In this document: positions 31,151 to 32,374 of the stretch, in pieces
How the letters are laid out: each line of letters starts with the position of its first letter
How positions within the stretch are numbered: position 1 is the first letter of the stretch
NCBI RefSeq assembly: GCF_036507355.1
Contig: NZ_AP027877.1
DNA length: 64,000 bases
Direction: 5' to 3' (one strand)
DNA from: Escherichia coli
GTDB taxonomy: Bacteria > Pseudomonadota > Gammaproteobacteria > Enterobacterales > Enterobacteriaceae
Program-made: the position numbers and the translations under genes
The notes under the pieces: model-generated
Told to the model about the DNA's origin: nothing
What the model saw: the letters and a program-made list of their open reading frames with translations, nothing else
Databases searched by the model: none

Positions 31151-32374
31151 TTATCTCACCAGCTTTTCGGCACGCTGGTGTTTGGCCTGATACATATTGT
31201 GATCGGCAAGCTCTTGTAATTTTTCCGCAGAGGCGTGCTCAATGGTCATCGCGTAACCAATGCTTAATGTCATGGTGGTCTGATGGCCATTATGAAGATC
31301 AAACGGGAGATTAAAGATTTGTGTCAGTGCTGAGCATATCTGCTGCACTTCAGATTCCGACTGTACACCATAGAGCACCATCGCGAATTCATCGCCGCCC
31401 AGGCGGTATGCTTTATGTCGTAGCCCGCCAAATTCAGCTAACCGTTTTGCGATTTCAATCAAGACTCTATCGCCCGTCGCATGACCCCAGGTATCATTGA
31501 TATATTTGAAATTATCGCCATCAAGAAATAGTAACGCCGACGTTTTTCGGGCATCGGAATTGTTCATCAACGTATTGATGCCGCTACGAAACGCTGCGCG
31601 GTTAGCCAGCCCGGTTAATGGGTCATGTAGCGCGGTACGCAGAAGCTGCGCATTTTTGGCCTGTAAACGAAGCTGCCACTCTTCCATTTCATCCAGCAGA
31701 CTGTTGAAGTCGAGAGCGAAGCGGTGAAACTCAGCGATACGTTCTTCCGAAACTCGTCGGGAAAAATTGCGGTTGGAACGCACATCATGTACGACATCGG
31801 TGATATTTTTCAGTGCTTCCACCAGGCCATTGTGCAAATGGCGGGTGAGGGTAATTGCGATTCCTGATGCCAGCAGAATACAACCGGTCAGTACGGCGAG
31901 CGAAAACCAGATAAAATGGCTGATTGAACTGTCGCGAGCGGTGAAGCGTACTTCGCCAATGGTTTCACCATTGTGACGAATCGGCTGAATGATGGGGGTA
32001 GGGAAGAGCCAGTGGCTTATGAAATTGCTGAAAGTATCGCCTGGATCCTTACGGGTGTAATGCTAGGATGCCAGAATATTTTGCTGCTTATCACGTACTT
32101 CTGCAGTTGAAAATTGCCCTTGCTGGCCCAGCGCTACCAGTGTTTCAGTTGCTGCAGGGCCATCGGCAAAAACGACCGCAGCTTCCAGGCTGTAAGTCAT
32201 TGTTGCAGCGGTTAGCGCCAGGTTTTTTTGCGCGTATTGTTTCAGGGTTAGCACTGACGTCACGGAAAGCAGCAACCAGATCAGCGTCATAGTGATAAAT
32301 ATGCTGGTCATGCTGATGTTGCGTAATGCTCTTTTAAACGTGGGGCGCTTATGAAGAGAATTATCGTTATCCAT
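31151..32374 (-). pseudogene. dgcN: dgcN/yfiN (membrane diguanylate cyclase, GGDEF) with one in-frame amber codon at 32063-32065
   Basis: ORFs 32063-32374 ([17 protein letters not shown]...NILAS) and 31151-31837 (...LGGDEFAM... GGDEF) lie in the same frame; sequence between is open: NILAS*HYTRKDPGDTFSNFISHWLFP...RHLHNGLVEAL. Confidence 0.8.

Follow-up and report, generated by a model that had tools for sequence, protein, structure and literature searches.

The stretch analysed here, 64,000 nucleotides of Escherichia coli DNA from contig NZ_AP027877.1 and called the window below, carries on its minus strand a copy of dgcN (yfiN), the gene of a diguanylate cyclase, in which a single amber codon interrupts the reading frame. 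The locus raises the questions of whether this stop is genuine, by which mutation it arose, and whether it belongs to a genome decay of the kind seen in Shigella, as an initial annotation made from the sequence had suggested. The analysis indicated that dgcN is very probably a point-mutation pseudogene, made by a G-to-A change in a Dcm methylation site, that its operon partner yfiB was inactivated independently, and that the YfiB-YfiR-DgcN (YfiBNR) pathway was most likely lost or nearly so. The nonsense loss of dgcN is an ordinary, recurrent and already known kind of event, since the same mutation is annotated by RefSeq in the E. coli isolate RM10410 and a stopped dgcN has been published for Shigella flexneri.

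The interrupted reading frame of dgcN

The window shares with the YfiBNR locus of K-12 the synteny yfiL-yfiR-dgcN-yfiB-rplS, the CHASE8...GGDEF architecture of the cyclase and an intact GGDEF motif; the genes listed at and around the operon were trmD, rplS, yfiB, dgcN, yfiR, yfiL, aroF and tyrA. It differs from K-12 in the amber at codon 105 of dgcN, in the loss of the first dgcN ATG and in that yfiB is also stopped. Further amino acid differences from K-12 DgcN, some of them shared and some private, were N9H, M31T, A81V, A127T, L145F and D337G. Among complete E. coli genomes, 5425 of 5426 gave a match to the 2.35-kb operon, with the annotation yfiR, dgcN and yfiB, and the window DgcN with its stop repaired scored 500 bits against the NCBIfam DgcN/YfiN equivalog NF007423 (cutoff 325). 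The gene is the dgcN/yfiN ortholog by descent and, its frame not being open, a pseudogene.

Translation of the minus strand from 32374 to 31148 gave 103 residues (MDNDNS...QQNILAS), a stop, 303 residues (HYTRKDPGDTF...AEKLVR) and the normal stop. The plus-strand CTA at 32063-32065 is the TAG of the minus strand (context GTAATG CTA GGATGCC, 32060-32075), and this codon 105 was the sole internal stop of the 408-codon frame, as the initial annotation had observed. Its proposal that a tryptophan codon had been converted by one G-to-A change was borne out when the gene was aligned codon by codon with other E. coli alleles: K-12 (b2604), GF3-3 and PCN033 all have TGG (W105) at this position, and no insertion or deletion was found over 1227 nt. 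The base change that removed the first start codon (ATG to AAG) also replaces N170 with K in the overlapping yfiR, and among the 11 operon haplotypes compared it was found in the window only.

The amber falls within the periplasmic CHASE8 domain, ahead of the second transmembrane segment (TM2), the linker and the GGDEF domain, in agreement with the earlier expectation of a product of about 103 residues that ends in the N-terminal membrane/periplasmic part. Ordinary translation would yield a 103-residue stub comprising the first transmembrane segment (TM1) and part of the sensor, without TM2, the HAMP linker and GGDEF. The first in-frame ATG, GTG or TTG codons after the amber were codons 181, 186, 199 and 231, all beyond TM2, and no Shine-Dalgarno-like sequence was found upstream of these four, which makes efficient re-initiation of a useful product unlikely. 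The positions of all features of the operon are given in Table 1.

Table 1. Positions of the dgcN operon features in the window.
Feature	Position	Strand	Description
yfiB pseudogene (outer-membrane lipoprotein; activates DgcN by sequestering YfiR)	30653..31135	-	99.0% identity to K-12 yfiB, ungapped, one internal stop
Amber codon of yfiB, TCG (Ser80) to TAG	30896..30898	-	C-to-A transversion; OmpA-like domain lost
dgcN (yfiN) pseudogene	31151..32377	-	409 codons, stop counted; 97.6% nucleotide identity to K-12 b2604, collinear and ungapped
GGDEF catalytic coding region (residues 248-402)	31169..31633	-	Pfam PF00990, E=4e-43; sequence intact, downstream of the stop; GGDEF motif present
CHASE8 periplasmic sensor coding region (residues 44-143)	31946..32245	-	Pfam PF17152, E=2e-31 (repaired protein); broken by the amber
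Amber TAG in place of Trp105 (TGG; K-12 numbering)	32063..32065	-	Residue 104 from the remaining ATG
Former Dcm site	32063..32067	-	Intact alleles have CCTGG, the window CCTAG; the mutated G is paired to the inner (methylated) cytosine of CCAGG on the opposite strand
Residual N-terminal open reading frame (TM1 and partial CHASE8)	32063..32374	-	103 residues and stop; identical to BED21309.1; public gene call of the fragment has a CHASE8 match
yfiR, intact (periplasmic repressor of DgcN)	32367..32885	-	172 residues, no stops; NCBIfam NF053586 sequest_YfiR, 168 bits (cutoff 85)
Lost first dgcN start codon	32375..32377	-	K-12 has ATGATG; the first ATG is AAG here, the second is kept

The stop was confirmed to be real and inherited and not an artefact of assembly. 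An independent public whole-genome shotgun assembly, GCA_905398585.1, was identical at 6312 of 6312 nt across the locus. An E. coli record of 4,643,937 bp contains the exact 103-, 79- and 73-residue fragments under the accessions BED21309, BED21307 and BED21306, and the exact 103-residue fragment is on record in four or five contigs, one of which is a complete chromosome. Although consensus errors may be single-base substitutions, a base-calling or assembly error over a true TGG can practically be dismissed in view of these matches, of a context free of homopolymers, and of the finding that no intact version of the window allele, which was sought to date the mutation, is on record.

Another part of the gene may have a history of its own. 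Codons 40-70 (32166-32258) contain 11 synonymous differences packed into 28 codons, and even the best of 5426 complete E. coli genomes matched the 5' end of dgcN at just 96.6% identity. This cluster looks like a recombination tract that may have been imported from an unsampled lineage.

Origin and recurrence of the stop at Trp105

In intact alleles, codons 104 and 105 read TCC TGG and so contain the Dcm site CCTGG, and in the window they read TCC TAG. The pair that was mutated is the ancestral inner C:G pair of CCWGG, and the change is a C:G-to-T:A transition. Dcm methylates the inner cytosine on both strands, and deamination at CCWGG is the classical mechanism of amber hotspots. Hotspots of this type were reportedly found in lacI by Coulondre et al. 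in 1978, and hypermutation at Dcm sites in natural populations is said to have been described by Cherry in 2018 (J Bacteriol). In the mechanism proposed for dgcN, the 5-methylcytosine of the complementary strand would have been deaminated (CCAGG to CTAGG), the site would have escaped very-short-patch repair, and the coding strand would have been left with CCTAG, in which TGG has become TAG. Six Dcm sites are present in K-12 dgcN, and a stop can be formed by deamination only at W105 and W297, whereas the single-step routes to a stop across the whole gene number 125, with 35 transitions among them. The dgcN change resembles the lacI-type hotspots in being G:C to A:T at the inner-C pair of CCWGG, in making TAG and in recurring on several backgrounds, and it differs in being deduced from natural alleles. 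Scanning for CCWGG has been advised in the search for deamination-prone cytosines in enterobacteria (PMC10710837). No Dcm-hotspot explanation for the recurrence in dgcN was found in the literature, and the explanation given here is the application of a known principle.

The same stop occurred elsewhere in E. coli. Of the 5385 complete E. coli genomes that matched a 71-mer centred on the TAG, a single one was identical to it, that of the crow isolate RM10410 (NZ_CP042350.1), in which RefSeq flags dgcN as a pseudogene with an “internal stop” and yfiB is intact. The RM10410 gene is one base from K-12, the TAG change itself, and 30 bases from the window. The two genomes thus have the same TGG105-to-TAG change in the same CCTGG context but on different haplotype backgrounds, and their stops would go back either to independent origins or to a very short shared tract. 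A fragment of 104 residues was on record as the K-12-type protein in 549 contigs and as a B2-type allele in 55 contigs. Among the sequences sampled, codon 105 was TAG in 11 (the window, RM10410 and the public loci L008-L012 and L015-L018) and TGA in two (L013 and L014). The TAG105 haplotypes fell into about six groups, which, with one exception, share 16-134 identical bp around the stop. For codon 297, the corresponding 296-residue fragment was present in 612 contigs; all eight loci retrieved had TAG and none had TGA, on haplotypes up to 47 nt apart, and the identical tracts around TAG297 between diverged haplotypes measured 33-167 bp with few exceptions. At the two Dcm-site tryptophan codons together, the ratio of TAG to TGA in the sampled DNA was 19:2. 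Given such short shared tracts and about six haplotype groups, independent recurrence is more parsimonious than common descent, and the position of W105 in a Dcm site would account for the repeated appearance of this stop in E. coli of unrelated backgrounds. The comparison of alleles therefore points to recurrent mutation at a Dcm hotspot as the likely source of the W105 stop.

The two E. coli assemblies with TGA105 have B2-like and K-12-like backgrounds and represent further independent changes at the same tryptophan codon.

Instead of a hotspot, the recurrence at W105 could reflect positive selection against a costly cyclase, or one old allele that was spread by recombination. DgcN activity arrests growth and division, and for each of ten further codons that one transition would turn into a stop, N-terminal fragments ending there are on record in tens to hundreds of contigs; some of these may not be true stops. 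TGA in place of TAG at codon 105 in two sequences also fits this explanation, as does the frequent recombination of E. coli, with TAG80 of yfiB on three operon haplotypes. Selection for loss alone, however, predicts no preference between the stop codons, whereas TAG prevailed at the Dcm-site codons, and identical tracts of 16-167 bp are too short for typical recombination imports. Selection or spread rather than a hotspot was accordingly judged an unlikely explanation, but one that deserves some weight. The selection and hotspot readings are compatible and do not exclude one another.

Several points weigh against the reading of dgcN as a Dcm-site pseudogene in a silenced pathway. Neither TGA105 in L013 and L014 nor the C-to-A transversion of yfiB is explained by Dcm deamination. 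The hotspot sample was small and consisted of non-independent public contigs chosen by an exact protein fragment. Short gene-conversion tracts are possible, and a K-12-like TAG allele could have donated the window TAG in a tract of at most 108 bp. The contigs with fragments ending at the Dcm-site codons W105 (549) and W297 (612) were the most numerous, but they were not cleanly split from those at the non-Dcm codons W157 (499) and Q85 (389), all of these counts being inflated by clonal sampling and by partial genes at contig ends. Neither dcm nor vsr falls within the 64 kb of the window, and the Dcm site was recognised by its sequence motif. The stopped dgcN of S. flexneri was still active when over-expressed, so that leaky read-through is possible (PMC11327459). 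Finally, dgcN had 8 nonsynonymous to 23 synonymous codon differences from K-12 against a background of 58 to 416 in 36 neighbouring genes (p=0.048). This excess is marginal and similar ratios were found in other non-housekeeping genes of the window, and dgcN thus gives no sign of a long neutral decay.

Because a Dcm site can give rise to the same stop repeatedly, identical pseudogene alleles in different strains need not share ancestry. Recurrent identical stops matter for typing, for genome-wide association studies and for the inference of host adaptation from pseudogenes.

The YfiBNR module, the lineage and possible residual function

The amber codon of its own that the initial annotation had noticed in yfiB was found at codon 80. 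The repaired window YfiB scored 348 bits against NF007424 (cutoff 155), and the Pfam match to OmpA fell in the 73-residue open reading frame downstream of the amber. The Ser80 amber was present on three operon haplotypes (the window, PCN033/L027 and L029), and dgcN was intact on the other two. The presence of TAG80 on three haplotypes may be due to one old allele moved by recombination or to recurrent mutation, both of which are possible. Several contigs end exactly at codon 80 of yfiB, which was explained by their selection through an exact-fragment look-up. In PCN033 (locus L035, 540-33170), a P2-like prophage of 32.5 kb occupies the 75-bp spacer between yfiB and rplS with an att duplication of about 44 bp, and the same spacer in the window is the empty site for a prophage of this type. 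A derivation of the yfiB amber as the scar of a prophage that carried its own yfiB 3' end was considered and rejected, as the att duplication of PCN033 is located downstream of the yfiB stop.

Periplasmic YfiR acts as the repressor of YfiN, and the repression is lifted by YfiB, which sequesters YfiR (PMC4887326, PMC4655355). E. coli YfiN is without I-sites, and its runaway synthesis of cyclic di-GMP (c-di-GMP) can deplete GTP and arrest growth (PMC10127611). Under reductive stress the protein produces c-di-GMP, then relocates to the division site, where it brings division to a halt (PMC4992967). As yfiB and dgcN are both stopped, no signalling through the pathway would be expected, and YfiR would have lost its known target. 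The YfiB-YfiR-DgcN pathway from envelope/redox stress to c-di-GMP is, as judged from the sequence of its genes, most likely non-functional or nearly so. DgcN has no I-sites for autoinhibition, and once out of control it stops growth and division; the loss of this costly, uninhibited enzyme was therefore plausibly tolerated, or even favoured, in some niches, particularly once YfiB was gone. Neither DgcN-dependent arrest of growth and division nor DgcN-dependent antibiotic tolerance would be predicted for the lineage. By itself the finding is of little consequence, as it concerns one rare E. coli lineage without the YfiB-YfiR-DgcN pathway from stress to c-di-GMP.

The initial annotation had related the loss of the module to the genome decay of host-adapted lineages such as Shigella. 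On this view the two stops would be part of a reductive evolution like that of Shigella or enteroinvasive E. coli (EIEC) in a host-restricted lineage. The c-di-GMP network does decay in Shigella (PMC10333796; PMC11327459), the window contains three insertion sequence (IS) copies (two of IS1A and one of IS4), with one IS1 truncating ypjA together with a deletion and the other in an amylase-like gene, and the lineage is unusual, the closest complete RefSeq E. coli being just 98.6-98.8% identical. The surroundings of the operon, however, did not agree with this proposal. When 43 K-12 coding sequences were transferred to the 45 kb from 19.3 to 64 kb, 41 were full-length and ungapped with correct ends and no internal stop, and the only broken genes were dgcN and yfiB, both of one operon. 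The high density of pseudogenes expected of Shigella/EIEC decay was not found among the core genes mapped. Nothing within the 64 kb points to Shigella as the source, and the named exact protein matches of the lineage are all labelled E. coli. Three IS copies per 64 kb exceed what K-12 has on average; all three belong to the ordinary elements IS1A and IS4, and a single window is a small sample for a judgement on IS expansion. The amylase-like gene is pseudogenized already in commensal pig strains. The same dgcN stop was found in the crow isolate and in other, unrelated E. coli, and the yfiB stop was found in PCN033 with dgcN intact. The published dgcN stop of S. flexneri, moreover, is reported at another position (“120 AA” against 105 in the window), and other Shigella species are stated to keep dgcN and the further degenerate cyclases intact (PMC11327459). 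Reductive evolution is thus an improbable cause of the two stops, and the Shigella-like framing is not supported. A nonsense pseudogene should not be equated with “Shigella-like decay” until the neighbouring genes and the lineage have been checked.

Lineage-specific alleles of TrmN, EamB and YfiE were present in only 7-11 public contigs, of which the named ones were all E. coli (VEE46_ tags), and complete RefSeq E. coli genomes were never closer than about 98.6-98.8% in any part of the window tested. These matches indicate that the source is a rare, somewhat divergent and under-sampled E. coli lineage. The genes at 60112-63919 (eamB, yfiE and trmN/yfiC) had 94-95% identity to K-12.

A low level of function could be retained if the amber of dgcN were read through by a near-cognate or suppressor tRNA, or if a GGDEF fragment were made from an internal start, so that c-di-GMP would still be contributed. 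The relevant precedent is dgcN of S. flexneri 2457T (S2841), which is annotated as a pseudogene and in which, as in the window gene, a nonsense codon precedes a GGDEF domain of intact sequence. Its over-expression in BL21 raised a c-di-GMP reporter and gave bands of about 17 kDa and of about 40 kDa, the latter of full-length size, and read-through was suggested by the authors (PMC11327459). In the window, too, the frame beyond the stop is open and the GGDEF motif is preserved, and both stops of the operon are UAG. Residual function of this kind was nevertheless considered very unlikely. The S. flexneri activity was shown solely on over-expression, from a high-copy T7 expression plasmid and not at native levels (PMC11327459), and S. 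flexneri YfiB is reported to be functional (PMC8948675), whereas the window yfiB is stopped and would need read-through too. The tRNA and transfer-messenger RNA (tmRNA) genes of the window were tRNA(CAT), tRNA-Glu and the tmRNA only; the amber suppressor that the initial annotation had raised as a caveat was not found, as no tRNA gene with the anticodon CUA is present within the 64-kb window, to which the search was limited. There was no other in-frame TAG among the 41 neighbouring genes. A restart would have no Shine-Dalgarno-like sequence before it, and its product would lack the membrane anchor and most of the dimerising linker. Among the stop codons, a single step leads from TCG to TAG only, and from TGG to TAG or TGA; since the yfiB codon could become no other stop than TAG, the occurrence of two ambers means little and is no evidence of suppression.

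A bolder proposal, to which very little credence was given, is that W105 and W297 are built-in high-rate “off” positions of a cyclase without I-sites, whose UAG alleles would be leaky and attenuated under selection rather than dead. If this were true, natural E. coli would repeatedly silence YfiBNR by methylation-driven amber mutations, with a trickle of read-through as hinted for S. flexneri.

Accessory DNA and insertion sequences in the window

The left 19 kb of the window is accessory DNA with both copies of IS1A. This element showed 100% identity among the top matches listed, on chromosomes and plasmids, and at least 99% identity in 6902 E. coli records. The first copy (8307-9075) lies inside a gene with an alpha-amylase C-terminal domain (about 7461-10488), which commensal E. 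coli of pigs already have as a pseudogene flagged “internal stop”. The second (15653-16421, in the region 14159-17240) truncates the ypjA/ehaD autotransporter gene after about 1.5 kb of 4.58 kb. The truncated ypjA directly abuts the 3' portion of a recombinase gene (16422-17240), and about 13 kb that is present in strain NT1F10 is missing here. The integrase gene adjacent to ssrA (17522-18751) is intact. The gene at 11048-11123 was called tRNA-Met (CAT) by ARAGORN, and its NT1F10 ortholog is annotated as tRNA-Ile; it is probably a lysidine-modified tRNA-Ile2 of the ileX/ileY type that flanks the accessory island. IS4 (about 37.9-39.3 kb; transposase open reading frame 37937-39265) was inserted in the raiA-bamD intergenic region, from which it is absent in K-12; several E. 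coli genomes from pigs and humans have it at the identical position.

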